This document shows, piece after piece, positions 35,885-53,820 of a DNA stretch of 64,000 nt (positions within the stretch are counted from its first letter, which is position 1; every line of letters starts with the position of its first letter). The notes beneath the pieces are model-generated. The model had not been told where the DNA came from, ran no database searches, and worked only from the letters and a program-made list of their open reading frames with translations. Position numbers and translations under genes: made by a program. The DNA is from Candidatus Pacearchaeota archaeon (lineage in GTDB: Archaea > Nanobdellota > Nanobdellia > Pacearchaeales > GW2011-AR1): positions 11,456-75,455 of the forward strand of contig JBAZNI010000001.1 of assembly GCA_041649295.1 (NCBI GenBank), written 5' to 3'.

Positions 35885-36244
35885 ATGGCAGAAAAAACAA
35901 GAATAATTGACATTTATGAAAAAACAGGAACATTTACTTCAGTTTTTAGAAGATTTACAGGTGAAAAAAAAGACTATAATTATGATGATTTAGCTGTATT
36001 AAGAAGGTTATTATCTAATGAAAAAGCACGTATTCTTCACGCTATAAAAAACCAAAAACCCCTCTCTATATATGCTTTGGCAAAGTTTCTTCATAGAGAC
36101 TTTAAGTCTGTAAGAGAAGATATTCTCTTGCTTAAGAAATTTGGGTTTATTGACTTAATTCAGGAAAAATCAGGAAAGACAAATAGGATAAATCACCGCC
36201 CGGTAATTTCTGCAACAACTGTAAACATAGTGATTAGGATTTAA
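35885..36244 (+). CDS. winged-helix transcriptional regulator (archaeal MarR/ArsR-like, COG4190-style)
   Basis: 119 aa. LSNEKARILHAIKNQKPLSIYALAKFLHRDFKSVREDILLLKKFGFIDL is an HTH plus wing pattern. Confidence 0.6.
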   Translation: MAEKTRIIDIYEKTGTFTSVFRRFTGEKKDYNYDDLAVLRRLLSNEKARILHAIKNQKPLSIYALAKFLHRDFKSVREDILLLKKFGFIDLIQEKSGKTNRINHRPVISATTVNIVIRI

Positions 36245-36786
36245 CTCAGATTATAGCACATTTCAACTCTCATAGTTGCAACTTCAGAACTCGAGCCTAT
36301 ATAAAAAGTGTTTTTTCCAAACATCTTTGTAGAAGGGCAGAAAGTAGCAGGCCCCTTTCCAGCAAATATAGGGGAAATTATGTCTGTTTTTTCCTCACTT
36401 CCGGTATATAACTTCATCTCATAATACCTTCTATAGCTTTCTTCTCCAACATCAAAACTATTATTTAAAATTTCTTTTATTGTGTTTTCCAGGTATTTGC
36501 ATGTATCTTCCCCATTTTCACAGCTTTGTCTTCTATAGCATAAATCAACAAGACTTTCAATTGTCTGAAAGCTTCCAAGTCTTTCACAACCAGTTGTTAC
36601 TGGTTTTATGCCTGTTAAAAATGCAGATAGTTCATTGCTTTCTTGTATTGTAGTTGAATTGGGTTTCCTGAGATAAATGCCAAGAAGAACAATGCCAACT
36701 ATTGCAACTAAAACTACAATTAGCACAAAACCAACCATTTCTTCCTGAGCTTTTATTTTTTTAGCTTTCATCTTCTTCCACATCAA
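36241..36786 (-). CDS. type IV pilin-like protein (class III signal peptide)
   Basis: 181 aa. The N-terminus KKIKAQ/EEMVGFVLIVVLVAIVGIVLLGIYL is a basic stretch, A/G-Q, then about 20 hydrophobic residues. Confidence 0.6.
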   Translation of the reverse strand: MMWKKMKAKKIKAQEEMVGFVLIVVLVAIVGIVLLGIYLRKPNSTTIQESNELSAFLTGIKPVTTGCERLGSFQTIESLVDLCYRRQSCENGEDTCKYLENTIKEILNNSFDVGEESYRRYYEMKLYTGSEEKTDIISPIFAGKGPATFCPSTKMFGKNTFYIGSSSEVATMRVEMCYNLS

Positions 36787-37291
36787 TCATCAATATGCCT
36801 AATTCACACTTATCATAGGCAACTCCATTATAAGTCTGTTTTTTGCACAAAGGGACAAAAGAATACACTTTTGCAGAGTCTTTTTCAGTGTATATTTTTA
36901 TTATTCTGCAATCTGGGTAATTTCCGCTGTCGCATTCCCTGTCTTTTGTATCTTTTGGATAAACTTTCTCAATAATAAACCCTTTGATATTTTTTCCCCA
37001 AAAATCCTTATATCTCTCTTTGTTTTCAGATGATTTTAAAATCATAAGCTTGTCAAGATCAACACTGTTAGGAATGTTTTCATTAAACGAAAATTCAGGG
37101 GTTGAAGCGATTTTAGATACTAAGGCAATTGCTTTTTGTTTTTCCAATTCCTTAACATCTGAATGAAGATTTGAGAATTTTATAGATACATAAAACAGGA
37201 CTACTAAAACAAAAAATAATGTTACTGCAACTATCATAAATATTGTTTGTTGCATTTTAAACTGCGCTTTTTTTCTTAATATAACTCGCAT
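36761..37291 (-). CDS. type IV pilin-like protein (class III signal peptide)
   Basis: 176 aa. N-terminus LRKKAQ/FKMQQTIFMIVAVTLFFVLVVLF. It overlaps its neighbours in the operon. Confidence 0.6.
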   Translation of the reverse strand: MRVILRKKAQFKMQQTIFMIVAVTLFFVLVVLFYVSIKFSNLHSDVKELEKQKAIALVSKIASTPEFSFNENIPNSVDLDKLMILKSSENKERYKDFWGKNIKGFIIEKVYPKDTKDRECDSGNYPDCRIIKIYTEKDSAKVYSFVPLCKKQTYNGVAYDKCELGILMIDVEEDES

Positions 37292-38235
37292 TGCAACTCC
37301 TGATTTTTGTGGTCTATTTCATCTGCCTTTTCTTTAATAACTTTTAAGCCTATTGGCGAATTCAGGTTATTTGCCAGATTTGCCAGAATAATAATATCAG
37401 AGTATAGTCCGCTATTGCATGTACCAACAACTAATTTTGATTTATCTGCATAAATTTCAGAAACATATCCTATTCTTTTTGCAATTCTTTTCATATTGCA
37501 CTCGTAATTTGCCTTTGAACTAAATATCCTGCCAAATAAAAGACTTTCTGCAAAATATAGTGTTTCTTCATCTTTAGAGACAAAACCTTCACTGCATTCA
37601 GAGTCTTTGCATTCTACATTTATGTTGCAGTTTGCATTTGTGAAACAAACTGTTTTGGAATTTTCCAAACAGTCAGAAAGAGAATCTGCAATTGTTACAT
37701 TGGAATTTTCACTGCTTGAAAGGCTTAAAAGACTATTTTTAACATCTTCAGGAGCATTAACAAAGCAATAATTATCTGTGTATGCTATAACAATATCTGC
37801 TGCCTTAAAAGGCATTTTAAAGGAACTTATAAAAAAATAGATTTGTTTGCCCTGAATCATGGATTCTGTAAATAAATACTGGTTTTTTGTTGGCACATCC
37901 CCCCCTTTTTCACTCCATCCTTCTTTTGCCAAACTTGTTTTTTCAGAAAACTGTATTCTTATTTCTCCAAAATTGCCTGCATTATTGCATGAAGTATAAA
38001 CTCTTGTTTCTTTCGGGAGCATAATTGAAGTCATTGCCAATTCTTCAGATGTTGTCTGCAATGAATCAAGAGCATTTGCATAATCTCTTGCAGTTTTTGT
38101 GTTTATCTCTACTGTATTTGTTTTTATTATATTTGCTGCAATATAAATTGCAAGTATTAATATAATTGCTCCTGCTATAATTGATAAAATCCATACAAAA
38201 CTCATTTCAATTGCTTTCTTATTCATACTAAACAA
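37276..38235 (-). CDS. type IV pilin-like protein, larger Cys-containing ectodomain
   Basis: 319 aa. N-terminus MNKKA/IEMSFVWILSIIAGAIILILAIYIAA, with about 11 Cys in the ectodomain. Confidence 0.6.
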   Translation of the reverse strand: MFSMNKKAIEMSFVWILSIIAGAIILILAIYIAANIIKTNTVEINTKTARDYANALDSLQTTSEELAMTSIMLPKETRVYTSCNNAGNFGEIRIQFSEKTSLAKEGWSEKGGDVPTKNQYLFTESMIQGKQIYFFISSFKMPFKAADIVIAYTDNYCFVNAPEDVKNSLLSLSSSENSNVTIADSLSDCLENSKTVCFTNANCNINVECKDSECSEGFVSKDEETLYFAESLLFGRIFSSKANYECNMKRIAKRIGYVSEIYADKSKLVVGTCNSGLYSDIIILANLANNLNSPIGLKVIKEKADEIDHKNQELQCELY

Positions 38236-38722
38236 CCTTTGACACGCTTATAAGAGAACTTCCTTCTTTTTTTTCAAGGAAAATCTTTATTTTTTCTTCA
38301 GCAACATTAATACAATAAGGATTGGATGTAAATGAATCCATGTCAATATATTTAATTTCGACAGAAGGAAGTGCAGAATTTCTTGGATAGAAATAAAAAT
38401 TATGCACATTGCTCACTCTTTTTAATTCAGATACAATTCCTTTATCACTTCCTGTTGTGCTTTTTGAACTATCCCAAAAACAGACTTTTTCCACATTTCC
38501 CGGAATAGATTCTTCAAATATATAACTTGCCCCTAAAATACTGCTTCTGTGCAATTCTAAAACTTTTTCTTCAAAGTCTTCTACAAATTGCGCCTTTGCC
38601 GTTTTGTCTTTTAAATCCAAAAACATATTAATTGCATAAAAAGCAACAGCCATAAATGCTATGATAAGGATTATAGAAAATATCATTCCAAATGATAAAT
38701 TTATCTGCCCCCTTTTTTTCAT
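38228..38722 (-). CDS. type IV pilin-like protein (class III signal peptide, DUF361-like GQ-x-x-LSF)
   Basis: 164 aa. N-terminus MKKRGQ/INLSFGMIFSIILIIAFMAVAFYAI. First gene of a four-gene overlapping operon. Confidence 0.65.
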   Translation of the reverse strand: MKKRGQINLSFGMIFSIILIIAFMAVAFYAINMFLDLKDKTAKAQFVEDFEEKVLELHRSSILGASYIFEESIPGNVEKVCFWDSSKSTTGSDKGIVSELKRVSNVHNFYFYPRNSALPSVEIKYIDMDSFTSNPYCINVAEEKIKIFLEKKEGSSLISVSKVV

Positions 38723-38930
38723 AATAAGATAATCATACCAAGATTATTAAATGTTTTGAAAATACCTAAAATAACTTAATAGTTCATTTTAACCTCCTTG
38801 TTGATTTAATCAAAAACAACAGAAAATAATTTAATTAAGGGCTTTGGATAAAATAGTTTCACCTTCATTTGATAGGTAACATGCCCCATGAGAGACTGAA
38901 CTAAAAAGTACACATTCCTTAAAAATATGC

Positions 38931-39830
38931 CTAAAATATCCCTTTGCTACTCTTCAAAATTTCAGACAACAATTTGACCAAAGGTTTTAGATCCCCCTTA
39001 ATTTGTGCAGACTCTAATGCTTCATAATACTTATGTTTTATAGAATTTGGGATATTTACCATAGGAAAATTATTCTTATGCAATATAAAATTCATTAATA
39101 ACCTTCCAGTTCTACCATTTCCATCAACAAATGGATGCACTGTCTCAAATCCAGCATGGAAATAAGCTGAAACTATTAGCGGATGTAATTTTTCTTTATT
39201 TTTAGAGTACCAAAATAAAAGTGATTTTATTTCTTTTGGAACATCTTCTGGTTTTGGAGGAAGCCAATCTGTACCTCTTATATATACTTGCAAATTTCTA
39301 AAACACCCAATTTGTGTTTTTAATTCTTCTTTTAGAGTATCCTTTACAACAATTTTATGCAGTTCACAAATAAACTCTTTAGTTATGTCTCCATTATAAC
39401 TTAATATAAAGTCAAAAGCTTTTTTATGATTTAAAACCTCATTTATTTCTCTCATTGGTTTTCTAGGAGTTATGCCTTCAAAGAGTAACTGTGCTGTCTC
39501 CTGTAGTGTGAGCGTATTTCCTTCAATTGCAGTAGAATTATAAGTAAAATCAGAAGTAAAAACTTCATATCTATTTTCAAAACTTTCTTTTGGCTGTTTT
39601 TTATATTTTTCCTTTATATTATCTAACTCTTTTATATCTTGTTCTGTTAATAAGTTATTTAGGTATAATAATGTTTTATCTGCATTTTTTCCTTTTTTTA
39701 AAATTTCTTTTTTATTTAAATTAACCCCAAGATAAACTCTTTCCTTGTTAACTTTTTTCCCCCTTCTTACAGATTTAACTCTATAATAATACTTTTTTCC
39801 ATTTTTTTCTTTTATCTCCGTATATGGCAT
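38931..39830 (-). CDS. Fic-family protein (AMPylase-type) with an intramolecular inhibitory motif
   Basis: 299 aa. It has the Fic motif HPFVDGNGRTGRLL and an upstream STAIEGN, matching the (S/T)xxxE(G/N) alpha-inh motif. Confidence 0.9.
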   Translation of the reverse strand: MPYTEIKEKNGKKYYYRVKSVRRGKKVNKERVYLGVNLNKKEILKKGKNADKTLLYLNNLLTEQDIKELDNIKEKYKKQPKESFENRYEVFTSDFTYNSTAIEGNTLTLQETAQLLFEGITPRKPMREINEVLNHKKAFDFILSYNGDITKEFICELHKIVVKDTLKEELKTQIGCFRNLQVYIRGTDWLPPKPEDVPKEIKSLLFWYSKNKEKLHPLIVSAYFHAGFETVHPFVDGNGRTGRLLMNFILHKNNFPMVNIPNSIKHKYYEALESAQIKGDLKPLVKLLSEILKSSKGIF

Positions 39831-39972
39831 AATTCTTATACGTCTACATAGTATATAAATTTAACTGTTGTGTGGACGTGATTATGAGAAAGCTTAGTCA
39901 AAAGGTTCTACTCTTCAACTTTTATTTTTACTGGTTTATCATCGATAAAAAGGATGCCCCCGAGCAGTTAGT

Positions 39973-39990
39973 CCCAAGTATTAACTCCTC
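39973..39990 (+). repeat. degenerate copy of the tRNA 3'-half fragment found at 62297-62323
   Basis: cccaagtatt+aactcctc equals 62297-62306 plus 62316-62323, with the intervening 9 nt (ccgaggttc) missing. Confidence 0.4.
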
Positions 39991-40016
39991 TGCTTTTTGT
40001 TCAATTATTTCAAGAA

Positions 40017-40361
40017 TTATTCTAATCCCAAACTTATTTTTATAGCGAAATCTACTTTATTCATAGAATAAAAATCTAAAGAACTTATTCTTTTAATAAT
40101 TCTTGATTTATCAATTGTCCTTATTTGATTAAGCATAATTGTTGAATCTTTATTTAAATGAGAATCTTGTTTAGAGATAAAGACATTGGTCGGATACTCT
40201 TTTTCAGGAACTTTTGAAGTAATTGCAGCCACAATTGTTACTGGAGAAAATTTATTAGAAATATCATTCTGAATCACCAAACATGGCCTTATTCCTCCTT
40301 GTTCACTTCCTTTAACAGGTTCAAAATCAACGAGTAAAATCTCACCTCTTTTTATTTCCAT
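40017..40361 (-). CDS. mazF: MazF/PemK-family endoribonuclease toxin
   Basis: 114 aa; RGEILLVDFEPVKGSEQGGIRPCLVIQND...VTIVAAITSK is the canonical MazF pattern. Confidence 0.9.
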   Translation of the reverse strand: MEIKRGEILLVDFEPVKGSEQGGIRPCLVIQNDISNKFSPVTIVAAITSKVPEKEYPTNVFISKQDSHLNKDSTIMLNQIRTIDKSRIIKRISSLDFYSMNKVDFAIKISLGLE

Positions 40362-40638
40362 TTTTAATTTTCTTTATATCTTTAAGATATTTTTCTGGGA
40401 TTAAATCTTTACATTCCCAATCCTTAAAATCTTCTATTGCTTCAAATTCTCTTGTAATCTTCAAGCTTTCTTCGGCCATTACCTTGCAGCCTTCAATAAG
40501 TAATTGCTCTTGTTCTCTTTTGCATTTTTCTGCAATTTTCATTAGGCTTACAATAACCTCTTCGTAAGTTTCTTTATTGGATTTTAATCTATCCAAAGCG
40601 CTTTTCACATTTTCATTTAGTTGAATTGTTGTTACCAT
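40342..40638 (-). CDS. putative RHH-type antitoxin partner of MazF
   Basis: 98 aa, overlapping the mazF start by 20 nt. The N-terminal TTIQLNENVKSALDRLKSNKETYEEVIVSLM looks like strand-helix-helix. Confidence 0.55.
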   Translation of the reverse strand: MVTTIQLNENVKSALDRLKSNKETYEEVIVSLMKIAEKCKREQEQLLIEGCKVMAEESLKITREFEAIEDFKDWECKDLIPEKYLKDIKKIKNGNKKR

Positions 40639-40755
40639 GATACTATAGAATAACTATAGTTTATATATCTTTCTTTTTTCTTTTGCGATTACTTCCCAAC
40701 TTTTTCCTCACGATATAAGAAAACCTTAATAAACTGAATTCTCTTAACATGTAAA

Positions 40756-41430
40756 ATGAGAAAAGTTAAACTTATTTGGTATGCTTTAACAATTATTCCA
40801 ATAATTTTAATAATCTTAGGTTATATTTTTCCTTCTACATTTTTTTCGAGTCAAGAATCAATAAGAAATTTTGTTAGCCAATTTGGAGTATTTGCTCCTA
40901 TTGCTTTTATTATTCTTCAAATTTTACAAGTTGTCTTAACTCCAATTAGCCATTACACTGTTTCAATTGCAGGAGGGTTTATTTTTGGATTATGGCAAGG
41001 TTTTATTTACAATTATATCGGAAGAGTTATTGGAACAGCAATAGCATTTTATCTTGGTAGAAAGTTTGGAAGAAAAATAATTAAACATGTTGTTAAACCA
41101 GAAACACTCCAAAAATATGATTGTTATTTTAATAAAGGAAAACTATTATTATTTCTAGCATACTTCTTGCCTTTATTCCCAGATGACGAAATTTCTTATT
41201 TGGCAGGATTTTCTTCTATAAGTCCTTGGATTTTCTTACCACTTATGGCAATTGGGCACTTAAGTGGCAGCTTAAGTTTAGCCTATATTGGAAATGGGAT
41301 ACAATCAATTAAAGAACCAATGTTTGTCTTTCTTTCTTTGATAACTCTAATTGGGGGAGTTTTATTTGCGCTTTATTATAAAAAAATTATTTCTAATAAA
41401 CATAGTTCAACTCCCCTTCCAAGCATCTAG
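40756..41430 (+). CDS. TVP38/TMEM64 (DedA/SNARE-associated) family membrane protein
   Basis: 224 aa; GVFAPIAFIILQILQVVLTPIS...GGFIFG...GRVIGTAIAFYLGRKFGR...LFPDDEISYLAGFS. Confidence 0.85.
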   Translation: MRKVKLIWYALTIIPIILIILGYIFPSTFFSSQESIRNFVSQFGVFAPIAFIILQILQVVLTPISHYTVSIAGGFIFGLWQGFIYNYIGRVIGTAIAFYLGRKFGRKIIKHVVKPETLQKYDCYFNKGKLLLFLAYFLPLFPDDEISYLAGFSSISPWIFLPLMAIGHLSGSLSLAYIGNGIQSIKEPMFVFLSLITLIGGVLFALYYKKIISNKHSSTPLPSI

Positions 41431-41598
41431 CCAGATAGTCCTACGCCCCATTCGTAACTTAACCCAAAAACCTCATTAGTTATTCGGTTTATGTAGAGAA
41501 GTTAATCTTAATGATGAAAGAACCCACGATTTGTATTACACTCTATATGACGCATTTTGTAATAAAATTTATGATAAGAAGTGAATACTAATAAAATT

Positions 41599-43848
41599 TT
41601 ATTCCTCTTCACTCACAGCCCATTGTTCAGGTCTTGCAATAACAGAACATTCTGTATCTATTGGCATTCTTCCGTTTATATCCATGCATTTTATATAATA
41701 ATTTTGCTCTAACTGCCATCTTGCTAAATGAATTGTTTTTTCATCAACAGGGTCGTGAACCATCTGAGTTCCTTCTTCAATATTATAATTGCATTTTGTG
41801 CTTTCATCATTGCTGTAAGAACATGTCGCATCTTCATTAGTTATTATTTTTAAGTTGCTTCCATCATTCATTATTCTTGCAATTAACGGTTCATCTGTGT
41901 CTACATAGACACTGAAAGTTGTATTAGTTGATGCTGAATTTCCCCCTAAATCTAAACATTTCAGGTAATAAGTATAAGTTCCAGATGATAAATCCTGCCT
42001 CTGCTTGTGTTTGTAGCTGTTTGTTTCTGCAAATTTTACATAACTATCTTCACTTCCAATGCTATAATAACATTCAGCTTCTCCTTCTTTATAGCCATTT
42101 TCTGTTTCTATTCCTATATTTACCTCTACACTTGAAGTTGCTCCTGTAACTTTTTCTCCATTTTCAGGTGTTACACTATCTTCTTTTATATTCAACGGGT
42201 TTGTTCCGATTAATTTAAAAACATATGATGTAGTCATCGGATTTCTGTCTTCTTTTGCCATCCATGGCTGGTCCTCACATCTGAAATAAAATGTATTTTC
42301 TTTTCTGTCTTTAATTCCAGTTAATGCTCCATCACACGCATACAATAAATTCTTAGACATTGCAGAAGGGCTTTGAGCGCAAGTCATTGTATTTTCCATA
42401 TCATTAATACTCTGGTCTGTGAAAGACCATTTGCAGTTTGCAGGTTCATTAGTGTAAATAGTTATTGGAGTTGCTCCAATTTCGCCATTATAGCTAACCT
42501 GATATTGAACAGGGCTTCCATTGTCAATGCTTGTTTCTTCAATATATGGAGGGGTTAAATCAGGCCCATCATCAACGCAAATATCAATTCCATAAGGAGC
42601 TTCATTATAGAAACCATTTGCACTTATGCATCTTACATACAAATTATAAGATTTTGCATTTTCAATTATCATCCTAGAATCTTCTTCTGTTAATTCTTCT
42701 GAGTCATTTGATGTAGCTTTTATGTAAGAATCAATTGCTCTTGGGCTTGGCATATTCATTTTTTGCGAATGATTGTATGCAAATAAATTTGACTCTCCGA
42801 AAAAGTAAGCCATTTCATCATAAGTGTCTGTCAGTGAAAAATCAATTTTACATTGTGCTGGTTTGTTAGTTTGTATTCCAAATTCAAGTGGGGTAAATGC
42901 AGGTATACATCCATCTTTTTTTCCAGGCATTATAATCTTTGTTCCCCACGACGGAGGCATTTCTTTTATCTCTGAATATTTTAATCCTTTTGTCAGCACA
43001 TCTTCCCACGGGCGAATCATCGGGCTTTTAACATCTTTTGGATTTATCCACACACATCTTTCTTCAGCTGTCCCGGCATTAACAATATCACATGCCTGCC
43101 CTAAACTCTTGCACCTATATTCTGAACATGGTTGAACACCGTCGTTGCACTTCTCGCAGTCAGCTCCTCCAATAGGAGCTTCCCACGGCAAACAATCAAA
43201 ATCAACTGTTTTATAAGAAACTTTTTTATATGTCATTATAAATACAACAGCTCCGACAGCAATTCCAGTTATCCAGGGGTTTTGTCCGATTAAACCAAGT
43301 GCTCCATGCTCAGCAAACATCCCTCCTTCTGCAAACATTCCTGTTGCTCCTTCAGCTTGTCCTGATGCCTGCAAAGCTGCTAAACTTTTTCCAGTAAATG
43401 CAGCAGCTGCCAATCCATTCTGAAGTGCTTTTGTCGTCGGTTCTTCTAAACCAAGAGCATTCCCAATCCATCCAGATGCAAAGTATGCAACTCCCGCCCA
43501 CACAACTCCACCAATAACTCCTTTTGCTCCAGGAGCACTAGGGGCGAGGAATTGTTTTATGAGTCCAGGTTCGTCTGTAGCTACGCCCTCGGCAGTATGA
43601 GAAGTTTTTGATGCTTCTTTAAGTTTATTAAACTCTGTAGGAGAATGCATTTTACCATCAACATTACTAATCCATTTATCTTCTACAGCATTATATGTAA
43701 ACGGAACATTTCCTAAAGAATCTGTTGCTCCATTTGTTATATCCGCTTTCACAAGTTTTATATCCAATCCAATCATAAATGCTATAGCAAAAATAGAGAG
43801 AATTATATTTATAATTATTAAAATAGCATTCCTCTTTTTATTCATCAA
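41599..43848 (-). CDS. large Cys-rich surface protein, type B (Gly/Ala-rich membrane region, CxxC knot, four Cys-framed beta modules)
   Basis: 749 aa. Residues ~215-749 are collinear with the C-terminal ~560 aa of the 48251-52171 product (e.g. CEKCNDGVQPCSEYRCKSLGQAC vs CGECNKDEQKPCSKYKCESLGMNC; NKPAQCKIDFS vs NIPAQCKFSTD). A TTTATAAA box lies at 43867-43874. Confidence 0.7.
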   Translation of the reverse strand: MMNKKRNAILIIINIILSIFAIAFMIGLDIKLVKADITNGATDSLGNVPFTYNAVEDKWISNVDGKMHSPTEFNKLKEASKTSHTAEGVATDEPGLIKQFLAPSAPGAKGVIGGVVWAGVAYFASGWIGNALGLEEPTTKALQNGLAAAAFTGKSLAALQASGQAEGATGMFAEGGMFAEHGALGLIGQNPWITGIAVGAVVFIMTYKKVSYKTVDFDCLPWEAPIGGADCEKCNDGVQPCSEYRCKSLGQACDIVNAGTAEERCVWINPKDVKSPMIRPWEDVLTKGLKYSEIKEMPPSWGTKIIMPGKKDGCIPAFTPLEFGIQTNKPAQCKIDFSLTDTYDEMAYFFGESNLFAYNHSQKMNMPSPRAIDSYIKATSNDSEELTEEDSRMIIENAKSYNLYVRCISANGFYNEAPYGIDICVDDGPDLTPPYIEETSIDNGSPVQYQVSYNGEIGATPITIYTNEPANCKWSFTDQSINDMENTMTCAQSPSAMSKNLLYACDGALTGIKDRKENTFYFRCEDQPWMAKEDRNPMTTSYVFKLIGTNPLNIKEDSVTPENGEKVTGATSSVEVNIGIETENGYKEGEAECYYSIGSEDSYVKFAETNSYKHKQRQDLSSGTYTYYLKCLDLGGNSASTNTTFSVYVDTDEPLIARIMNDGSNLKIITNEDATCSYSNDESTKCNYNIEEGTQMVHDPVDEKTIHLARWQLEQNYYIKCMDINGRMPIDTECSVIARPEQWAVSEEE

Positions 43849-43927: not shown

Positions 43928-44362
43928 CTAATTATCACAAATAGAAGTTATATTTTTTTTAAAATAACCAAAGTCTGAATCGCCAATTTTCATACTAATC
44001 AAAGGATCATCTTGTTTAGTTATCTTTCCATAAGCTATAACTTTTTCTCCAAGACAATTAATAGAGCAAACAACATCCTCTCCCATTGGGATAGAATAAA
44101 TCTTCCTAACACCATTCTTAATTTCTTGAATTACTTGTCCATTAGAACTGCTATTTTCCCTTCCTACTTCATTAACATTAACCTCGACATTAGTCCCCTT
44201 AGGATCTAATGCTCCAGAGATAGCCGAACCTGCTGTTTGATAAACTAAAAATTCTCCGAATGCATTTCCAGCAGGAGTTGTCTGACAGCCAGTTAGTGCA
44301 GTTGCTAAACCCGCTAATCCAACTAATCCTCCATTAATTAATTGTCTTGTTTTTCTTATCAT
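43928..44362 (-). CDS. putative lipoprotein (lipobox LTGC)
   Basis: 144 aa. The N-terminus is MIRKTRQLINGGLVGLAGLATALTGC. Its start overlaps the upstream gene's stop. Confidence 0.55.
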   Translation of the reverse strand: MIRKTRQLINGGLVGLAGLATALTGCQTTPAGNAFGEFLVYQTAGSAISGALDPKGTNVEVNVNEVGRENSSSNGQVIQEIKNGVRKIYSIPMGEDVVCSINCLGEKVIAYGKITKQDDPLISMKIGDSDFGYFKKNITSICDN

Positions 44363-44775
44363 ATTACTACTCCATAGTTACATGTATTTAAATCTTTTGT
44401 TTTCTCATTATAAGCAACACCAGCCCACACAACTCCTTGTGCCATTCCCCAACCACCCAAATCCGCATCTTTAGGATTTTTATATAAATATTCATACCAA
44501 GATAATTTGTCAGGATTTAAACTTGCAGGAGTGTTAGTTGAAGAGCCATAGGCAAATTCTGCCTCCTTTTTTGTCATGGCCTCTTCCGTTTTTACAGCAT
44601 CTACTGTTTGTTGATCTGGTAACCCCTTAGCATAATTAAACCACCAGTCACCATCAGGAGCACTCACCAACTCACTCTCCAACCCAATCATAAACGCAAT
44701 TGCAAAAATAGAGATTAAGATATTGACTAATATAACCAAACATTCACTCTTTTTTATCACCTCTGTTTTTACCAT
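44359..44775 (-). CDS. small signal-anchored protein sharing its N-terminus and the GVVWAGVAY motif with the 749-aa protein
   Basis: 138 aa. NILISIFAIAFMIGLE compares with NIILSIFAIAFMIGLD in 41599-43848; GVVWAGVAY is present in both. Confidence 0.55.
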   Translation of the reverse strand: MVKTEVIKKSECLVILVNILISIFAIAFMIGLESELVSAPDGDWWFNYAKGLPDQQTVDAVKTEEAMTKKEAEFAYGSSTNTPASLNPDKLSWYEYLYKNPKDADLGGWGMAQGVVWAGVAYNEKTKDLNTCNYGVVI

Positions 44776-44783
44776 TTTGTTTT

Positions 44784-45257
44784 TTAACTATCAATTAATT
44801 GAGTAATCCAACCCGTTCTAATAGTCGAATATCCTCTGAATTTTGTGGGTTTGCCATCCTCTAATTCTTGCATTACATATACACTCATTTTATCAGGCCT
44901 TCTCCATTTAATTTCTCCCCAATATTCAAATCTTTTACCATCACAATTAAAAGCTACATAATCTAATTGTCTAGGTTGACTTGGTTGAGCATATTGCCCT
45001 TGATTACCACCATTGTAAATATTAACTTTTGTTCCGCTGTTTTCAAGTGCTTGTGTACTTCCTGCTGCTTGAAGTCCTGTTCCTATTGTAGAAAGTGCTT
45101 GCGCTTGTTTAAATGTTTTAGCTCCAGGCACTAGTAAGTTAACTCCTGTTCCAAGTAAACTAGTATTAGAGCCAGTAGCACAACCAACTAAACTTCCAAG
45201 TCCAACCAATCCAACTAATCCTTTTGCAAAATCTCTTCGTGTTATTTTTTGGGCCAT
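44784..45257 (-). CDS. putative Tat-exported lipoprotein
   Basis: 157 aa. ITRRDFAKGLVGLVGLGSLVGC has a twin-arginine motif plus a lipobox. Its own TTTATAAA box at 45285-45292 is 28 nt upstream. Confidence 0.6.
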   Translation of the reverse strand: MAQKITRRDFAKGLVGLVGLGSLVGCATGSNTSLLGTGVNLLVPGAKTFKQAQALSTIGTGLQAAGSTQALENSGTKVNIYNGGNQGQYAQPSQPRQLDYVAFNCDGKRFEYWGEIKWRRPDKMSVYVMQELEDGKPTKFRGYSTIRTGWITQLIDS

Positions 45258-45299: not shown

Positions 45300-47192
45300 C
45301 TATCCTACCTCATTCGTTGCCTTTGTTGTGCTTTCACTATCAGTGTCTGTAGTAGTCTCTGTATTTGTTGAAAACTCTCCGCCGGTGCTTCCCCCGAACT
45401 GCTGTTTGGTATCAACTTCTGCTGCTTTCTTTTCATCTTCTGTTCCTGTTTTCTCACCTGATTTTGAAATTGTTACTCTGAAACCGCCATCAACATATTT
45501 TCCTATATAATTTCTGTCACTTCCACAATCTCCGTAATTTGTGCATAATCTGTTAACTTGGAAAGCTGTTAGTGGTTCTAAACATTCGCAGTTCTCAACA
45601 CATGTTCCGTCTCCCTTGCCCCATAATTTTTTTTCATATTTTACAATGCAAGATTGAGATGCTAAATCACACTGGTTTTCACTGCCTTCATCCCAGAAAG
45701 AAATTCCAGGAGCAACATCTGGAACACATCTCCAGTTCCGATTGTCTTCTTCAACATTTTGTTCTAATTTAAGCATGCTCCCAATTAACCCCTCATTAAT
45801 GCTTCCGATTGTCTGTGCAAGTATATCTTCTTCTGTTATTTTTTCTATTAATATTGGAACCCACTTGCAGTCTCTTTTATCTGTGTTGCGACAGTCTCTA
45901 GAGCTATTTTGCATAATGCAATCCTCCCACCTGTTAGCAACACATCCAGCTTGGGCAAAATCCTCTTTTTCCCCAATAGTGTCTTGAACGCAAACTTCTT
46001 TCCTATAATCATCACAAGGCTCAACAATTTCTTCACTTAAGAAACATATATGCCTGAAATGCCTGCTTCCAGGAGCATCGCTATCTTCTTTTCCAGAATC
46101 ATAAACACACCACGATTCCCCATTTTTGTAATCTTTTCCATTATATGTATCATAACAGTTTAAATCAGAGCAGATAAAACTCCCATATGTCGGCTTTCTG
46201 CTTCCTGCGGATTTACAAATGCTTCCTTCAAGATAATTGCAGTTTCCACAGCTCTTAGATTCTGCATTTGCAGAATTACTGCCTCCCCCACAACTTTCAT
46301 CTTTAGGAACAACCTTAGCCCAGTAAGCAACATCATTTATTTTAGAAGCGTCGTAAATATTTGCAGGATTCCCGCATGTGTCGATAAAATAAACTTCATC
46401 TTTGCCTTCAATACAGACAGTTTCTTTAGTTTTTTCGCAGATAGTGTTTAATTCCTGTGCTGTGCATAAGTAATTTTTATGAAAAACAATAGAAGATGTA
46501 TTTGTAGTGCCTTTTACACTTTCAGAATTGCATTCAGCTCTTGTAGTAAATTTGCATGTTGTCTGGTAATCAGATTCAAAAACACATGCACCAACATCCT
46601 GCGAACTTGCTAATGCAATGCAAGACAATTCATCTGCAACATTTTTCCTAAAATCAGTTATTAATCCATAATATCCAGATAATTTTTTGCATCTTACTAA
46701 TGGAACATAAGCTGCCTGCTGCCCTAGAACGCAACATCCTAATTCGCATTTTGGAGTTGCTTTGCAGTCAGCACCTTCATCCCACTCTCCTCCAGAACTA
46801 ACACAGGCTTCTCTTGGAACATTTTCCATACAAACACCTTCATCAGAATCATAACAACATCCTCTTTTGCAGAATGAAGTTGCTTCGCACGAAGTCGGAG
46901 TTTTTTGAAATTTAGCATCGCATTGTTCTAACGGGGAATTCTGGCAATAAGCTCCTGATAAAGTTTTTTCACAGCAATAACTAACTTCAACAGCAGAAGT
47001 CATCTGCATAGTTAATACTAAAATTAAATATAGTGATAATGTGAAGACAGCTAATTTAAAATAAGCACTATTAACTTTTAAGCCAGCTCTTTTTCTCATA
47101 TTGTTAATTGTTTTACTGCTCTTATTAATTTTTAGTCTCTCAATTATACTATTTTTTTCCATCTTAAATATTTCTATACTCTTATTTGCCAT
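45300..47192 (-). CDS. large Cys-rich secreted protein, type A
   Basis: 630-aa ORF. The likely real start is MRKRAG at 47099, which places the signal peptide (LAVFTLSLYLILVLTMQMTSA) at the N-terminus. It is collinear with residues ~50-545 of the 48251-52171 product (GCCYDSDEGVC / GCCFDTEEGLC; ELSCIALASSQDVGACVF / ELSCIESTQSLEKGACRF; EVYFIDTCGNPANIYD / EVYWFDSCGNPENIYD). Confidence 0.7.
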   Translation of the reverse strand: MANKSIEIFKMEKNSIIERLKINKSSKTINNMRKRAGLKVNSAYFKLAVFTLSLYLILVLTMQMTSAVEVSYCCEKTLSGAYCQNSPLEQCDAKFQKTPTSCEATSFCKRGCCYDSDEGVCMENVPREACVSSGGEWDEGADCKATPKCELGCCVLGQQAAYVPLVRCKKLSGYYGLITDFRKNVADELSCIALASSQDVGACVFESDYQTTCKFTTRAECNSESVKGTTNTSSIVFHKNYLCTAQELNTICEKTKETVCIEGKDEVYFIDTCGNPANIYDASKINDVAYWAKVVPKDESCGGGSNSANAESKSCGNCNYLEGSICKSAGSRKPTYGSFICSDLNCYDTYNGKDYKNGESWCVYDSGKEDSDAPGSRHFRHICFLSEEIVEPCDDYRKEVCVQDTIGEKEDFAQAGCVANRWEDCIMQNSSRDCRNTDKRDCKWVPILIEKITEEDILAQTIGSINEGLIGSMLKLEQNVEEDNRNWRCVPDVAPGISFWDEGSENQCDLASQSCIVKYEKKLWGKGDGTCVENCECLEPLTAFQVNRLCTNYGDCGSDRNYIGKYVDGGFRVTISKSGEKTGTEDEKKAAEVDTKQQFGGSTGGEFSTNTETTTDTDSESTTKATNEVG

Positions 47193-47298: not shown

Positions 47299-48090
47299 TT
47301 AATAACCATAACCTACAGGAAATACAAGACTCTTAACAGCAAAATTAAAACTTTCTTTGCTGTCTCTGTCTGAAACATAGTAAAGTGTCGAGCCATCACC
47401 CTGTTTTAACATTTCCACCCTGATGTTTGGATACATTGCCATATACACAACAGGGTCGCTGTTTCCAAATCTTGCCTCATAATTTAATATTGATGTTGAT
47501 ATCATTATTAAGTCATAATAATTGCTTTTAACAGACACTTCAAAAGGGCTGTCAAATCTGGCACTTGTCTCGCTTCTGCTTATTGTGATAGGATAATCAA
47601 TTATAAATTTTATTTCACTTGGCACAAATTCAAGAGTAAAATTAATATTTCCAGATGCAACAGAATAACCGCTTGCTTTCAGCTCTTTTTCAACCTGATT
47701 AATACAGCCAATTATTTCATCTTTAACAGCATCCTTTGCCTCTTTTTCTATACCTTGCAACAACAGGGGTTTTTGCATTGTGCATGTTTTATAATACTCA
47801 TTTGTATAGCAGAGATATTCTAATTTTTTGCCGTCGTGCATGTAAGCATGTTCAGGATTTGCACTTCCTCCTTGGGATAAAATCACATCAATCGAATTTT
47901 TAATTTGTGGATTTTTTTCAATGCAGTTTTTTAAATTAGAATTTACATCATATTCAATCCCAAAAACTCTGTTGACTATGCCTCTTCCCGAATCTGTAAA
48001 TGCAAAAAATAATATCAGCAATCCTACAATTACCACAGCAATTATTATAAATACAGTTACTTGTCCTTTTTTGCTTTTATTTAACACCAT
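47299..48090 (-). CDS. pilin-like protein (class III signal peptide), paralog of 52168-52941
   Basis: 263 aa. N-terminus NKSKKGQ/VTVFIIIAVVIVGLLILFF. Shared motifs with the paralog are YLCYT, EARFGNSDP/EAKYCNSDYP and FNFAVK/WGFAVR. Confidence 0.65.
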   Translation of the reverse strand: MVLNKSKKGQVTVFIIIAVVIVGLLILFFAFTDSGRGIVNRVFGIEYDVNSNLKNCIEKNPQIKNSIDVILSQGGSANPEHAYMHDGKKLEYLCYTNEYYKTCTMQKPLLLQGIEKEAKDAVKDEIIGCINQVEKELKASGYSVASGNINFTLEFVPSEIKFIIDYPITISRSETSARFDSPFEVSVKSNYYDLIMISTSILNYEARFGNSDPVVYMAMYPNIRVEMLKQGDGSTLYYVSDRDSKESFNFAVKSLVFPVGYGY

Positions 48091-51200: not shown

Positions 51201-52171
51201 GTTTTTATCTCTCCATTTACGCATAATTCCCTATAATGTCTGCTGCCGACAACATCCCTGCCACTTCCAACAACTCCGTCATAAACACACCACGATTCCC
51301 CATTCTTCCTTGTTTTTAATCCATCTTTGCAATTTAAATTTCTGCAAGTGTAATCTCCATTTAATTTTTTCTTATCAACGCCTTTTCTATAAGCGCCACA
51401 GATACTTCCTTTATTATAGTCGCAATTCCCGCATGTAGATAGTAGCGAGTTATCACCAATTGGATTGCAGGATAATTCTTTGCTTAAAACTTTGCCATTA
51501 TTCCACGAACGAGCTTTGTTAGAATCATAGATATTTTCAGGATTTCCGCACGAATCAAACCAATACACCTCATCTTTTTCATCTACACACCCAGTTGTTT
51601 TTTGCCTTTCACAGTTTGTTTCTAGTTCAGGGTTTGAACATAAGTAATTATTAAAAAATTCTCCTCTTACAGAATCACATTCTGTCTTAGTTGTAAATTT
51701 GCAGTTATACTTAACTTCACTTTCTGTTTTAAATCTGCACGCACCCTTTTCCAAACTTTGAGTTGATTCAATACATGATAATTCACTAGTTATTGATTTG
51801 TCAAATTTAGATTCAACTCCAAACATTTCACTTAATTTTGAACATCTTGTTTCTGTTACTAATTGGGATTCTAACCCTAAAGAACAGCATCCTTTTGCGC
51901 ATAATAAATTGTCGCACCCCTCTCCTGCTATCCATTTTCCATTTTCATTAGCTTCGCATGTTTTACTTCCTGAATTAGGAGAGCACAAACCTTCTTCTGT
52001 ATCAAAACAACATCCAGGAGTTCCACCTGAGCTTTCTAAGGTACCTTCAATGCTAAAATCATCAGCAGCAGAAACAGGTTTAATTTCTAAACCAACTAAA
52101 TAAGCAAATGCCACAATCCCAAATATCAATAAAGTTATTTCAAATGTAGATATTTTTCCTTTAGTTTTCAT
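48251..52171 (-). CDS. giant Cys-rich surface protein, a fusion of type-A and type-B proteins via a Gly/Thr/Ser/Ala-rich linker and a TM
   Basis: The track ORF is 1319 aa. The start is placed at MKTKGK (52171), which overlaps the upstream stop as ATGA. It has a signal peptide ending VSA, an N-terminal half like 45300-47192, low complexity at about 49958-50404, and a C-terminal half like 41599-43848. Confidence 0.75.
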   Translation of the reverse strand: MKTKGKISTFEITLLIFGIVAFAYLVGLEIKPVSAADDFSIEGTLESSGGTPGCCFDTEEGLCSPNSGSKTCEANENGKWIAGEGCDNLLCAKGCCSLGLESQLVTETRCSKLSEMFGVESKFDKSITSELSCIESTQSLEKGACRFKTESEVKYNCKFTTKTECDSVRGEFFNNYLCSNPELETNCERQKTTGCVDEKDEVYWFDSCGNPENIYDSNKARSWNNGKVLSKELSCNPIGDNSLLSTCGNCDYNKGSICGAYRKGVDKKKLNGDYTCRNLNCKDGLKTRKNGESWCVYDGVVGSGRDVVGSRHYRELCVNGEIKTEPCADYRKEICVETSAMGSVVGGLAADIPGVSGLVSSSLPDQSGAFCRTNMWEDCGGRTVLNCAQNPDCMPKVVYVSNDFYFTGCVPKYPPGFELGGIVEGATDQLTGELGGQLSSSGLGALGNLGQSDNPCSKGTKTCTVVYQKKGIAPFCKWECVKNCECEKIIFTAQMNEYCQNLGDCGAKSNIAGKVTEGGYSISKKGGKAKKPPRLTGIDKIYGIFAIAIPGQSAKPGFFNNINGLDNLQMYGIDEIFGNYMGKEIDSGMFSGGQLSNTLGGSAVGATGAGLGVASLGGHALGAGAIASGTVLSGGSTATLGAGSTLTLSNGVTLTGVQGGIGVTSTGLAGVTSVSGSTVTLSSGVTGTVGGAGTTTAAAGGAGAGGASTSGGTLLGLGPTAWVGVGVLAYLGLSYLMGCGETEETEITFTCKQWQRPAVGNCGECNKDEQKPCSKYKCESLGMNCKLINEDTANPECVTVETGEGIPVISPNYEVLNKNKYSYTSVGLNGFNVRTKDGKCLPAFEHVAFGVNTNIPAQCKFSTDPKILFDSMEYSFLEGDLYSKNHTTTTYLPSAESVIAGETLNTDEFNTLISNETVMGGILDILGDVNIYVKCANTKGVTNVANYKINFCVDDGPDRTPPVIIATSPPEDSIVAYNATQWNAGFYVNEPAECRFSDEILAGTSEEQYFAMTNNMYCEDDVGSGSLLGYLCNATLQIKQKENNFYIVCRDQPWLEENNSRNIGSVYEYKLYRSDSALVIDSITPRGTVYSELEPASVELKAETSGGVNGDAYCQYSLSSLGEDIFITFYDTGKSEHNQMLNSMLFRNYTIKVRCIDTGGNTAYNEAKFELVQGTAEGVDSDGDGWTDEEEAENGTDPNDPNDYPEGDNNSDNETNNNLAPEVTRVYSQGGDIIVLTNKNSKCVYSNNALNKCEFAFDNGISMSEELKKIHIAERNDKLTYYIKCKDRFDNQNSECAVIVKHDASV

Positions 52172-52941
52172 GGAGTCTCTAATACGCATCCGCGGACAGC
52201 GAACCCCCACAATTTATTTGTTCTTGTATCTTTAACAGTATAAATTTTATTGTCATCGCCTGTCTGGAATTTCTCAATATTTGCCCATGTATTTGCTCTC
52301 ATAATTAGAGGATAATCTGAATTGCAGTATTTTGCTTCTTGTTCTATTATTGTATGGACAACAACAGCAATATTATAAATAGGGCTTGGAATCTGAATTT
52401 CATATTTGCTAAATCCTTTTTTATCATCTGCTTTTGAAATTTTAAATTCCCGGTTTATATTAATTTCTATTTTTCCAGAAAGCAGAACAACTTCATAATC
52501 CATATCTTTTTCAAGAACAACTTCATACCCCTCTTTTTCATATTTTGCTTTTATATCATTAAAGCATTTTTGGGCTTTTGGCAGGGAATAATCATAAATT
52601 TCATCTTCTATATGATTTATTAAAACAGGATTTACAGGCTGGCATTTTGCATTGTTTTTTGAAGTATAGCATAAATAAGGGTATTCTTTATTTTCGAATT
52701 TTTTAACTTCATTTGGCAGTTTTACATAACCTCCGTTATCAATAATCATATTTGATGCATCTTCAACAGCTTCTCTTACACACTGCATAACCTCCTGATT
52801 TGGCTCTTGTGATGGTTTTGGGGATATTGGAAGTTTTCCATTTTTATATAGAATAAATAAAAAAATAACAGCCACAATTATTAATACTGCAATAATTATA
52901 AAAATTGTCACCTGCCCTTTTTTATTTTTCACCTTTTTCAT
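52168..52941 (-). CDS. pilin-like protein (class III signal peptide), paralog of 47299-48090
   Basis: 257 aa. N-terminus KNKKGQ/VTIFIIIAVLIIVAVIFLF. It has ATGA overlaps with both the upstream RHH gene and the downstream giant gene. Confidence 0.65.
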   Translation of the reverse strand: MKKVKNKKGQVTIFIIIAVLIIVAVIFLFILYKNGKLPISPKPSQEPNQEVMQCVREAVEDASNMIIDNGGYVKLPNEVKKFENKEYPYLCYTSKNNAKCQPVNPVLINHIEDEIYDYSLPKAQKCFNDIKAKYEKEGYEVVLEKDMDYEVVLLSGKIEININREFKISKADDKKGFSKYEIQIPSPIYNIAVVVHTIIEQEAKYCNSDYPLIMRANTWANIEKFQTGDDNKIYTVKDTRTNKLWGFAVRGCVLETP

Positions 52942-53075
52942 TTTTTACTATTCACTAAGTTTAATATTGCTTCCTCAATAGCATGAGAAACATTCCTGAA
53001 ACTTGATTTTTTTAAGAAATCCTCTAATTTTTTTTTAGTGCTCTCTTCAATAGTCGCAGACACCCTTACTTTCAT
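52938..53075 (-). CDS. 45-aa ribbon-helix-helix (CopG/Arc-like) protein
   Basis: Not on the ORF track. Translation: MKVRVSATIEESTKKKLEDFLKKSSFRNVSHAIEEAILNLVNSKK, a strand-helix-helix pattern. Its stop TGA overlaps the ATG of the pilin-like gene. A TATA-like tatataaag lies about 25 nt upstream. Confidence 0.6.
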   Translation of the reverse strand: MKVRVSATIEESTKKKLEDFLKKSSFRNVSHAIEEAILNLVNSKK

Positions 53076-53178
53076 TTAATTAATACAAAATAATACTTTA
53101 TATACTTTTTCATATTTAGTGGATTTTGTGTGATGAAGTAATATAAACAAGTAGGTAATAAATAATCACCCCCTACAA

Positions 53179-53820
53179 TTACATTGGGTAATAAATTCCA
53201 TCGATGCATACTTGACCAGCAGGACGAATACTTGATTCGTGGTAATCAATGAAACAATAATCTCGAATAAGACTTGCAAATGGAAATGCTTTTATAGCGC
53301 ATTCTTTTGCTGCTTCCAGCCCCACTCTACAACAATTTGTAATTTTATAATATTTTGGTTTAACACAAGTTCCAGTTTCCTTGCCTTTTGGTATGCAACA
53401 TTTTGTAGGTATAGCATTTATATAGATGCCATAACAATTGGAATTAGTTTTACATCCACATTTAGATGCAGTTACACCGTTAGTATTTTGAAAATTATTA
53501 ATACATATGTGCCCTGCAGAACTTTTTGAACAGTCTGAATCAAGACTGCAAAATACACAATGGCAGTCATGCGGATCAAGACTTGAGCATCCAAGAGTGG
53601 TGTCTATTTTCATAACACATCGTGGTGTTCCACGTTCACAATGTTCATCATTATAACAACAAGAACCTTCTTTTGGATTTTTACATCCCTCATCACCAGG
53701 GCTAAGTAAAATATTTTTGCTTTTCAAATAATTTCCAACACCAACCAAAACAAGAGCAATTATCAAAACAGAAATAACAATATAAATAAGTTTCCTGTTT
53801 TTCCTAACCCCTTTTTTCAT
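53179..53820 (-). CDS. Cys-rich secreted or anchored protein (213 aa, ~29 Cys)
   Basis: N-terminal TM or signal IYIVISVLIIALVLVGVG, followed by dense CC/CxC patterning (GSCCYNDEHC, CHCVFC, CGC, KCCIP, NCC). Confidence 0.55.
   Translation of the reverse strand: MKKGVRKNRKLIYIVISVLIIALVLVGVGNYLKSKNILLSPGDEGCKNPKEGSCCYNDEHCERGTPRCVMKIDTTLGCSSLDPHDCHCVFCSLDSDCSKSSAGHICINNFQNTNGVTASKCGCKTNSNCYGIYINAIPTKCCIPKGKETGTCVKPKYYKITNCCRVGLEAAKECAIKAFPFASLIRDYCFIDYHESSIRPAGQVCIDGIYYPM

Follow-up and report, generated by a model that had tools for sequence, protein, structure and literature searches.

Class III-signal proteins and giant cysteine-rich membrane proteins form a probable conserved cell-envelope system in Pacearchaeota and Woesearchaeota

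Few uncultivated archaea are as widespread as Pacearchaeota and Woesearchaeota, whose genomes are tiny and whose mode of life is presumed to be attachment to other cells; we know of no attachment machinery defined for them so far. In bacteria, two described assemblies are built from small proteins with prepilin-type signals: in type IVa pili, the four minor pilins FimU-PilVWX carry PilY1, and GspHIJK forms the pseudopilus tip of the type II secretion system. The present analysis concerns a 64,000-nucleotide stretch of Candidatus Pacearchaeota archaeon DNA (assembly GCA_041649295.1, contig JBAZNI010000001.1, positions 11,456 to 75,455; "the window," numbered from its first letter), in which an earlier note, made from the letters alone, had described the block 36241–53820 as a candidate surface or host-contact apparatus. 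This locus very probably encodes a conserved chromosomal cell-envelope system of Pacearchaeota/Woesearchaeota that consists of six class III-signal proteins (p257, p263, p164, p319, p176, and p181) and two giant bipartite membrane proteins, the second of which is represented in the window by the separate genes C630 and B749 (Table 1). Both kinds of component, prepilin-type signals and Ig-like surface proteins, are known; what is undescribed is their combination here, in which giants each coupled to a non-pilin class III-signal partner stand with a four-gene pilin-like operon in a motor-free locus. Full-text literature searches found no description of the cluster, and the source names of its proteins are all "hypothetical" or evident misannotations.

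As in the minor-pilin/PilY1 and GspHIJK systems, the cluster holds several small prepilin-type proteins, one of them much larger than the rest, in one operon with a fixed order; the operon adjoins a gene whose surface or adhesin-like product exceeds 1000 aa, and the N-terminal segment alone is shared. The likeness is organizational only, with no detected similarity of sequence or fold to either system, and searches against Pfam, NCBIfam, and PDB sequences gave no homology of the giants or p319 to PilY1/GspK-type proteins. In contrast to these systems, neither the locus nor its surroundings contain a major pilin, ATPase, platform protein, or peptidase, and the giants are membrane-anchored and combine Cys-rich with Ig-like regions, whereas PilY1 is a beta-propeller protein; compared with the bacterial tip complexes in general, the cluster is archaeal and has a cleavage-site Gln of Epd type. 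The Epd pili of Methanococcus maripaludis, type IV filament (TFF) system 1, resemble the cluster in the [K/R]-G/Q site with Gln at +1 (EppA) and in having many diverse pilin-like genes. However, Epd pilins are small and the main one has no globular domain (bioRxiv 10.64898/2026.04.22.720090), unlike the cluster proteins; Epd loci hold an ATPase, two platform genes, and EppA, which the cluster loci do not; and Pfam pilin and class III models are unmatched by the window proteins at the thresholds used. The Sulfolobales bindosome (Bas) likewise comprises large globular extracellular proteins with prepilin signals, thought to be held near the S-layer by their N-terminal helices, and its genes, like the cluster, lie away from the assembly ATPase (bioRxiv 10.64898/2026.04.22.720090). 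Bindosome clients are sugar-binding proteins encoded next to ABC transporters, whereas the cluster has no transporter genes and its globular domains are of no known family. The nearest published item, compared by description only, is the NEQ255 family (cls.004306), whose neighborhood is similar to that of the cluster: this secreted, DPANN-specific "dark matter" protein occurs in 43 of 67 DPANN genomes, often beside S-layer-like proteins (PMC6393860, Makarova et al. 2019).

All six proteins begin with a prepilin-type N terminus, that is, a short basic N-region, Gly or Ala at position −1, and about 20 hydrophobic residues. A motif scan of the 99 window open reading frames (ORFs) of at least 80 aa gave 13 positives, 10 of them inside the block. 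The six N termini, which the earlier note had picked out, are conserved in relatives: position −1 is Gly, Ala, or Ser in 161 of 161 sequences (117/117 p257/p263-type, 24/24 p176-type, and 20/20 p181-type), position +1 is Gln in 160 of 161 (116/117, 24/24, and 20/20, respectively), and position −2 is Lys or Arg in about 88%. Characterized class III signals are cleaved between G/A and the next residue, so that the cut would precede the Gln; the motif drawn previously is real, while the cut had been placed on the wrong side of this residue. For p164 and p319, aligned in a crude register, G/A occupies −1 in about 70% of sequences and clear consensus motifs emerge, K-[RK]-G-Q-x-K-L-S-F-G-M-I-F-S-I-I-L-I for p164 (30+ orthologs) and K-K-G-x-E-x-S-F-A-W-L-F-A-I-I-V-G-A for p319 (alignment A3), the latter family being the exception to +1 Gln with F/L/I followed by Glu. 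The corresponding consensus is NKKG-QVTIFIIIA in p257/p263, with Q10 invariant and the N terminus nearly invariant in p257 (alignment A1), K-[GA]-Q-L-K-I-Q-Q-M-A-F-M-L in p176, and K-K-[AG]-Q-E-E-M-V-G-F-V-L-I in p181, with Q14, E16, G19, and F20 invariant. In the family alignments this N-terminal segment is the best-conserved part of every pilin-like family, and in profile-profile comparison it is the only part that the five families have in common. Type IV pilin-like proteins likewise share only their N-terminal segment. Because a plain signal anchor needs no such conserved site, a prepilin-type peptidase site is suggested. EppA, the pilin-specific peptidase of Methanococcus maripaludis, requires Gln at +1 in order to process its substrates (PMC4390842).

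The cluster recurs widely. Homologs of the giant number at least 896, of about 1200 to 1390 aa, nearly all of them unnamed or hypothetical proteins and, where the source is named, almost all from Pacearchaeota or "Nanoarchaeota"; relatives occur in at least 517 GTDB species (one genome per species scanned), and the species scan returned 79 loci, nearly all from Pacearchaeota, Woesearchaeota, or Nanoarchaeota metagenome-assembled genomes (MAGs). A library of 1.84 billion proteins contains 8206 cluster representatives of the p257 family (E ≤ 1e-3), and p319 has 132 homologs, all hypothetical proteins of Pacearchaeota/Nanoarchaeota. When the window proteins were mapped to all ORFs of the related loci and to the called genes of four further contigs, one order was found to recur in ~80 species-level genomes: PCNA > (RHH) > p257 > giant > p263 > C630-type > B749-type > p164 > p319 > p176 > p181 < HTH > S-layer gene (RHH, ribbon-helix-helix; HTH, helix-turn-helix). 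The true neighborhood thus begins at PCNA and ends at the S-layer gene; within it, the small pilin-like genes p164, p319, p176, and p181 are a separate conserved operon. The 82 related loci contain 152 genes for a giant or an N-domain protein, and directly upstream of 126 of these lies a p257-type gene (median gap 1 nt; 53 pairs overlap), while most of the others have one within 1.6 kb; the pairing of a pilin-like with a giant gene, noticed twice in the window by the earlier note, is therefore near universal. In nearly all loci a p263-type gene precedes the second N-domain gene. All four of p164-p319-p176-p181 are present in the same order in 25 loci, directly downstream of the B749-type gene wherever an insertion is absent, and the HVO_A0114-type regulator keeps its position and orientation in 23 related loci. 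The genes for Fic, MazEF, and DedA are absent from the cluster position in most other related loci and are therefore regarded as an insertion outside the apparatus. Relative to the window orthologs, identity is 56% for PCNA and 32 to 44% for the cluster proteins, and the giants score 0.43 to 0.69 bits per residue versus 0.12 (barely detectable) for the S-layer protein. With conservation so far above that of the S-layer protein, the cluster proteins resemble a fixed machine and not a fast-evolving host-specific adhesin.

Paralogy within the block divides it into two modules. By BLASTP, the N-terminal half of giant 1 (aa 8–541) matches C630 (33% identity, E 6e-73), its C-terminal half (aa 606–1316) matches B749 (29–31% identity, E 2e-72), and p257 matches p263 (27% identity, E 2e-20), so that each module comprises a p257-type protein and a giant. 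The three very large Cys-rich proteins first described have the sizes given for them, although by these alignments those of 630 and 749 aa together correspond to one paralog of giant 1, split in two; in several genomes (e.g., L033, L035, L037, and L071) the second giant is fused, at 1287 to 1368 aa. The ORF of giant 1 covers 1319 aa with 63 Cys, and its real start is the ATG at 52171, giving 1306 aa and the ATGA overlap, already seen in the earlier note, that joins the p257 stop to the giant 1 start; the true start of C630 is probably Met32 (about 47099). From its N terminus, giant 1 consists of a hydrophobic helix, a Cys-rich ectodomain (aa ~50–548, window 50528–52024, 40 Cys), a Cys-free linker rich in Gly, Ala, Ser, and Thr (aa ~549–720) followed by a hydrophobic helix (aa 721–736; window 49964–50527 for linker and helix), and a C-terminal tandem beta-sandwich ectodomain (aa 742–1304, window 48260–49948) with 22 Cys and one TSP3 repeat. 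About 40 Cys are invariant in the C630-family alignment (A4), and invariant Cys are numerous in both halves of the giants. Because each half carries many invariant Cys, both are probably extracellular. Hydropathy profiles of nearly all homologs show a Cys-free linker of 160 to 250 aa with two to several Gly/Ala-rich hydrophobic segments, from which the linker is predicted to form a membrane hairpin. As a separate observation, the N termini of the giants (window 52067–52171, homologs in alignment A2) are class III-like in many cases (K-K-[AG], G-I-S-Y-F-[Q/E]-I-L-I-L), with a conserved Glu/Gln near the start of the helix; 10 to 60 aa downstream comes an [I/L]-P/G-x-V-S-A motif, also conserved, which in many giants is too distant from the helix for an ordinary signal-peptidase I site.

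The AlphaFold2 model of p257, built from 55 homologs, reached a pLDDT of 92.6 and places a helix at residues 8 to 33, a 13-residue Pro-rich break at 34 to 46, and a second helix at 47 to 68 packed in an alpha/beta domain of ~200 aa; p257 may represent a new fold. A homolog of the giant (P0036, 1184 aa, 79-sequence alignment) was modeled at pLDDT 80.3, with an N-terminal helix, a beta-rich, Cys-rich domain at about 50 to 540, a disordered Gly-rich stretch, a hydrophobic helix at 636 to 651, a beta-sandwich-rich C-terminal region, and no long coiled coil. Foldseek returned 436 PDB matches to this model at E ≤ 1e-3, led by desmoglein, desmocollin, protocadherins, NCAM2, and fragments of the grappling-hook protein GhpA (E about 1e-10 for the C-terminal half against desmoglein, protocadherin, NCAM2, and GhpA), and in BFVD it returned phage Ig/FN3 proteins. 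The search with the whole giant returned only tandem Ig-like arrays and was uninformative on the Cys-rich half. In the model, the C-terminal half of the giants is a chain of tandem Ig/cadherin-like domains, a generic architecture typical of adhesion ectodomains; like cadherin/protocadherin and GhpA, its ~560 C-terminal residues are a beta-sandwich chain at the level of fold only. However, TM-scores of 0.1 to 0.3 and identities of 9 to 12% mark this as a generic tandem-domain likeness and not as evidence of homology or of calcium-dependent adhesion. Profile searches of the p257, giant, C630, and p319 families against PDB sequences gave nothing significant, and neither Pfam nor PDB sequences yielded relatives of the Cys-rich domain. 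Profile and family searches, moreover, placed the large proteins in no characterized family with another role, and family scans detected no known enzymatic domain in the cluster proteins. Two candidate matches were set aside: CoV_NSP4_N, on 13 of 42 C630-family members (best E 7e-4), was judged compositional (transmembrane [TM] plus Cys-rich) and dropped, and a match of the giant to the AopB translocator (E 0.74) was not significant and not used as evidence.

In the favored, tentative reading of its function, the cluster would make a membrane stalk of pseudopilus type that carries two giant adhesin-like proteins, the whole being a fixed surface complex used in contact with other cells; this reading is regarded as possible but not as established. 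A prepilin peptidase encoded elsewhere, of EppA/Epd type with Gln at +1, would cut the six proteins after [K/R]-[G/A/S]; their near-invariant hydrophobic N-terminal helices would then gather in the membrane as a short stalk or tip complex that resembles a pseudopilus and is organized as are the four minor pilins carrying PilY1; each p257-type protein would bind the Cys-rich head of its giant 1:1; and the stalk would hold both giants in or through the S-layer as a fixed complex, which might serve contact. Host attachment by the cluster, which we infer, is plausible. If this reading is right, experiments could start from a small and testable set of genes, for six candidate peptidase substrates and the two giants, that bears on how DPANN archaea build their envelope and contact partners, and the uses of prepilin-type signals in archaea would widen past pili, archaella, and sugar-binding proteins.

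Several results weigh against a stalk of this kind. No window protein matched Pfam Class_IIIsignal, Pilin_N, or archaellin at E ≤ 0.1, and just 2 of 55 p257-family members matched Pilin_N, weakly (E 0.056). The Foldseek comparison proposed by the earlier note for an AlphaFold model of p257 gave no PDB match at E ≤ 1e-3 (best E 0.017), with no solved pilin among the matches, and in the model p257 has a broken N-terminal helix and no recognizable pilin fold. The proposal that a pilin-like subunit presents an adhesin gains from the Ig/cadherin-like half of the giants and loses from the p257 model. Hydropathy is the sole ground for the predicted membrane topology of the giants. The cluster has no candidate major pilin, and, consistent with the reported lack of PilB, PilC, and prepilin peptidase in the window, a scan of 30 window ORFs outside the block (not every small ORF was scanned) detected no secretion ATPase, platform protein, or A24 peptidase. 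Within ±10 kb of 85 loci, a motif test only, neither a GxxGSGK[ST]T ATPase of the right type nor a polytopic ORF with GxGDxK was detected, and one preprint reports type IV pilus systems to be missing in DPANN genomes. Finally, the cluster is better conserved than the S-layer protein, unlike host-specific adhesins, and a role in host contact is weakly grounded. The called genes around four homologs, and of six related contigs, likewise included no gene for the ATPase, platform protein, or A24 peptidase; in the source genome, the search for machinery covered 64 kb of the 565-kb contig. On the other side stand reports that archaeal pilin genes commonly lie apart from machinery genes (PMC4858521), that Methanococcales, Thermococcales, and DPANN possess Epd-like TFF system 1 (bioRxiv 10.64898/2026.04.22.720090), and that flaI/flaJ/flaK are present in most Woesearchaeota MAGs (PMC11606122; PMC8407392).

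The best-surviving alternative, considered unlikely, is a housekeeping scaffold of the S-layer, in which the giants would be anchors or stalks and the pilin-like proteins assembly or spacing factors, the S-layer would be held or patterned in every cell, and host contact would not be primary. In Sulfolobales SlaB anchors SlaA, and S-layer-like accessory proteins are found at archaeal pilus bases. Near universal and well conserved (32–44% identity versus 56% for PCNA), the cluster always ends beside the S-layer gene and the common HVO_A0114-type regulator. Its giants join membrane segments to tandem beta-sandwich domains as S-layer anchors do; like SlaB-type anchors and the Ig-rich S-layer-like proteins of DPANN archaea (e.g., the Nanobdella aerobiophila candidates), they are membrane-anchored, have several Ig-like domains, and are encoded near an S-layer gene. 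S-layer-like proteins also recur beside archaeal type IV filament loci (PMC4858521; bioRxiv 10.64898/2026.04.22.720090). However, the layout of the giants is unlike that of SlaB: their membrane segment is central (aa 721–736 of 1306) whereas that of SlaB is C-terminal, their model has no long coiled coil whereas SlaB has one, and they have in addition a Cys-rich domain of ~500 aa with about 40 invariant Cys, an obligatory class III-signal partner, and much higher conservation than S-layer proteins. SlaB, which has a Sec signal and beta-sandwich domains, is co-operonic with its lattice protein, whereas the S-layer gene here is a distant separate unit, 6 to 17 kb from the giants with the convergent regulator between them. 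The far faster divergence of the S-layer protein (0.12 versus 0.43–0.69 bits per residue) would be odd for tight-fitting partners, and a scaffold leaves the peptidase-type [K/R]-[G/A/S]/Q site of the six proteins unexplained.

That site also bears on a rather unlikely alternative, in which the six N termini are uncleaved type II signal anchors and no filament is made; the proteins would then form a membrane-embedded hetero-complex or act as separate anchored exoproteins, with p257 and p263 dedicated to helping the Cys-rich domains of their partner giants fold or be exported. The modeled p257, a TM helix, flexible linker, and globular non-pilin domain, would suit such a protein, as would the failure of the Pfam pilin models, the lack of TFF machinery nearby, and the preprint report of DPANN without type IV pili; the p257-type and N-domain genes are coupled strictly 1:1, split giants included, which suits a dedicated partner for the Cys-rich half. 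Uncleaved anchors, however, have no need for G/A/S in 161 of 161 sequences followed by Gln in 160 of 161 across three unrelated families, and it is unusual for a membrane anchor to be conserved above the rest of its protein. Genes for the prepilin peptidase FlaK are, moreover, reported in Woesearchaeota MAGs (PMC11606122; PMC8407392).

Two stronger proposals concern the partner membrane. That the cluster is a lineage-defining organelle, in which a six-protein stalk lets the Cys-rich heads and Gly-rich segments of the giants engage and possibly breach the partner membrane, is doubtful; if true, it would supply the contact or bridge machinery so far missing for these episymbiotic archaea, built from folds without solved relatives and with no dedicated pilus motor in the locus. 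Pores or cytoplasmic bridges have been observed between some DPANN cells and their hosts. A device for cell-cell bridging or fusion, in which the Gly/Ala-rich segments enter the partner membrane and the pilin-like stalk gives reach or force so that such pores or bridges form, is very unlikely. A Cys-free linker of 160 to 250 aa that in nearly all homologs contains Gly/Ala-rich hydrophobic segments (two to several), and that is flanked by two large ectodomains, is compatible with this idea, and size-fractionation data in a preprint make Pacearchaeota appear strongly host-attached; however, the giants show no similarity to a known fusogen or pore former, an anchor in the cell's own membrane accounts more simply for the hydrophobic segments, and for this lineage the proposal draws on sequence and a structural model only. 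A mobile or virus-derived island with incidental surface proteins, which the toxin-antitoxin and Fic genes within the block and the resemblance of the beta-sandwich half to phage tail and Ig-like proteins in BFVD might suggest, is contradicted by the shared chromosomal position from PCNA to the S-layer gene in ~80 species, by the absence of PHROG matches save one to the TSP3-repeat region and of any integrase or other mobility gene within the block (Pfam/NCBIfam scans), by a composition near that of the flanks, and by the toxin-antitoxin/Fic genes being the insertion when the cluster is not, and it is hardly credible.

Table 1. Features of the cluster and its conserved neighbor genes, in window positions; a slash in a sequence marks the predicted cleavage site.
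Feature	Position	Strand	Remark
213-aa protein g213, signal-anchored, 22 Cys	53179..53820	-	inside the interval of the earlier note
45-aa RHH protein, heads module 1	52938..53075	-	RHH_1 E 0.0017
p257, module-1 class III-signal protein	52168..52941	-	MKKVKNKKG/QVTIFIIIAV...
giant 1, 1306 aa	48251..52171	-	start overlaps p257 stop (ATGA)
p263, module-2 paralog of p257	47299..48090	-	KKG/QVTVFIIIAV...
C630, module-2 Cys-rich half, 630 aa, 45 Cys	45300..47192	-	homologous to giant 1 N-terminal half
three small accessory genes between module-2 halves	43928..45257	-	tat157, m138, lip144
tat157, Tat lipoprotein	44784-45257	-	Tat motif and lipobox TRRDF...LVGC read from sequence
m138, 138-aa protein	44359-44775	-	truncated copy of B749 N terminus
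lip144, lipoprotein	43928-44362	-	lipobox LTGC read from sequence
B749, 749 aa, 21 Cys, predicted membrane hairpin and Ig-like half	41599..43848	-	homologous to giant 1 C-terminal half
insertion: DedA/VTT, antitoxin, MazF, Fic	38931..41430	mixed	Pfam matches
DedA/VTT gene	40756-41430	+	sole plus-strand ORF of block
antitoxin of MazF/PemK	40342-40638	-	
MazF/PemK	40017-40361	-	E 7e-34
Fic	38931-39830	-	PF02661, E 3e-22
p164, gene 1 of four-gene operon	38228..38722	-	KRG/QINLSFGMIFSIILI; begins KRG/QINLSF
p319, gene 2, large member of four-gene operon	37276..38235	-	KKA/IEMSFVWILSIIAGA; begins KKA/IEMSF; 8 invariant Cys
p176, gene 3 of four-gene operon	36761..37291	-	KKA/QFKMQQTIFMIVAV; begins KKA/QFKMQQ
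p181, gene 4 of four-gene operon	36241..36786	-	KA/QEEMVGFVLIV
winged-helix regulator, HVO_A0114 family, convergent	35885..36244	+	PF25212 E 3e-15; between cluster and S-layer gene
S-layer-like protein, 779 aa, conserved neighbor at cluster end	33026..35365	-	S_layer_C E 4e-9

The ORF listing and Pfam matches agree with the first description of the block as minus-strand throughout save DedA and interrupted by Fic and MazEF. The consecutive genes of the four-gene operon overlap by 8, 16, and 26 nt (ORF listing), and the RHH gene and the p257 start share 4 nt. The 45-aa RHH protein, proposed to head a sub-operon, scores below the Pfam cut-off (18.7 versus 20.5 bits) and has homologs at the same position in 15 related loci; it is likely the regulator of the operon. 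What the earlier note took for one dedicated module holds for the pairing, the six pilin-like proteins, and the giants, while Fic/MazEF/DedA, the 213-aa protein, and the Tat lipoprotein fall outside the conserved system. The two lipobox proteins, one with a twin-arginine (Tat) motif, are visible in the sequence as described; tat157 has no homolog among the 82 related loci, and lip144 has homologs in only three. The 213-aa protein g213, to which about 29 Cys had been ascribed, has 22 (10% of its residues), no homolog among the 82 related loci, and no Pfam, NCBIfam, or PHROGs family match; its presence at the cluster head may reflect an addition specific to this strain. The accessory protein m138 aligns with B749 at 33% identity over 133 aa (BLASTP, E 1e-9) and may have been left behind when module 2 arose by split or duplication. 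None of the pilin-like and Cys-rich cluster proteins belongs to a Pfam/NCBIfam family; the domain matches in the cluster are one TSP3 repeat in the giant (TSP3_bac, E 1e-5) and a sub-threshold Big_13 match in B749, other Pfam, NCBIfam, and PHROGs matches being dismissed as TM-driven noise.

The cluster, at ~14 kb, makes up ~2.5% of the 565-kb contig, and extension past one end of the window reaches a ribosomal protein operon. Toxin-type genes recur around the locus in relatives: a Fic gene lies within the four-gene operon of locus L042 (about 20900–21900), and MazF or Fic genes lie near PCNA in L003 and L014. In the window, a nucleotidyltransferase (MNT) and HEPN gene pair (55293–55987) stands between the PCNA and primase genes. 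The genes upstream of PCNA (56119–62287) match their counterparts in related genomes in size and position; they encode a primase-like 522-aa protein, an exported 636-aa protein of no family (MMKRG/ILFVLVLL...), and a 436-aa protein of no family. If these are orthologs, the conserved neighborhood extends past the cluster.

Three further loci of the window were recorded. A likely diversity-generating retroelement occupies 16557–18717: a reverse transcriptase gene (RVT_1, 17665–18717, plus strand) is preceded by an 83-nt repeat (17560–17642), a second copy of which (17174–17256) lies at the 3′ end of a 279-aa ORF (16557–17396) without a Pfam match. The copies differ at 14 positions, and because the copy proximal to the reverse transcriptase has A at 12 of these, the pair carries a template/variable-repeat signature. 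At 20246–23344, a predicted surface protein of 1032 aa has a C-terminal dockerin domain and a neighboring ORF with a 15-nt tandem repeat, and at 26610–28247 a predicted 545-aa surface protein with a CARDB domain is encoded beside a family-2 glycosyltransferase.

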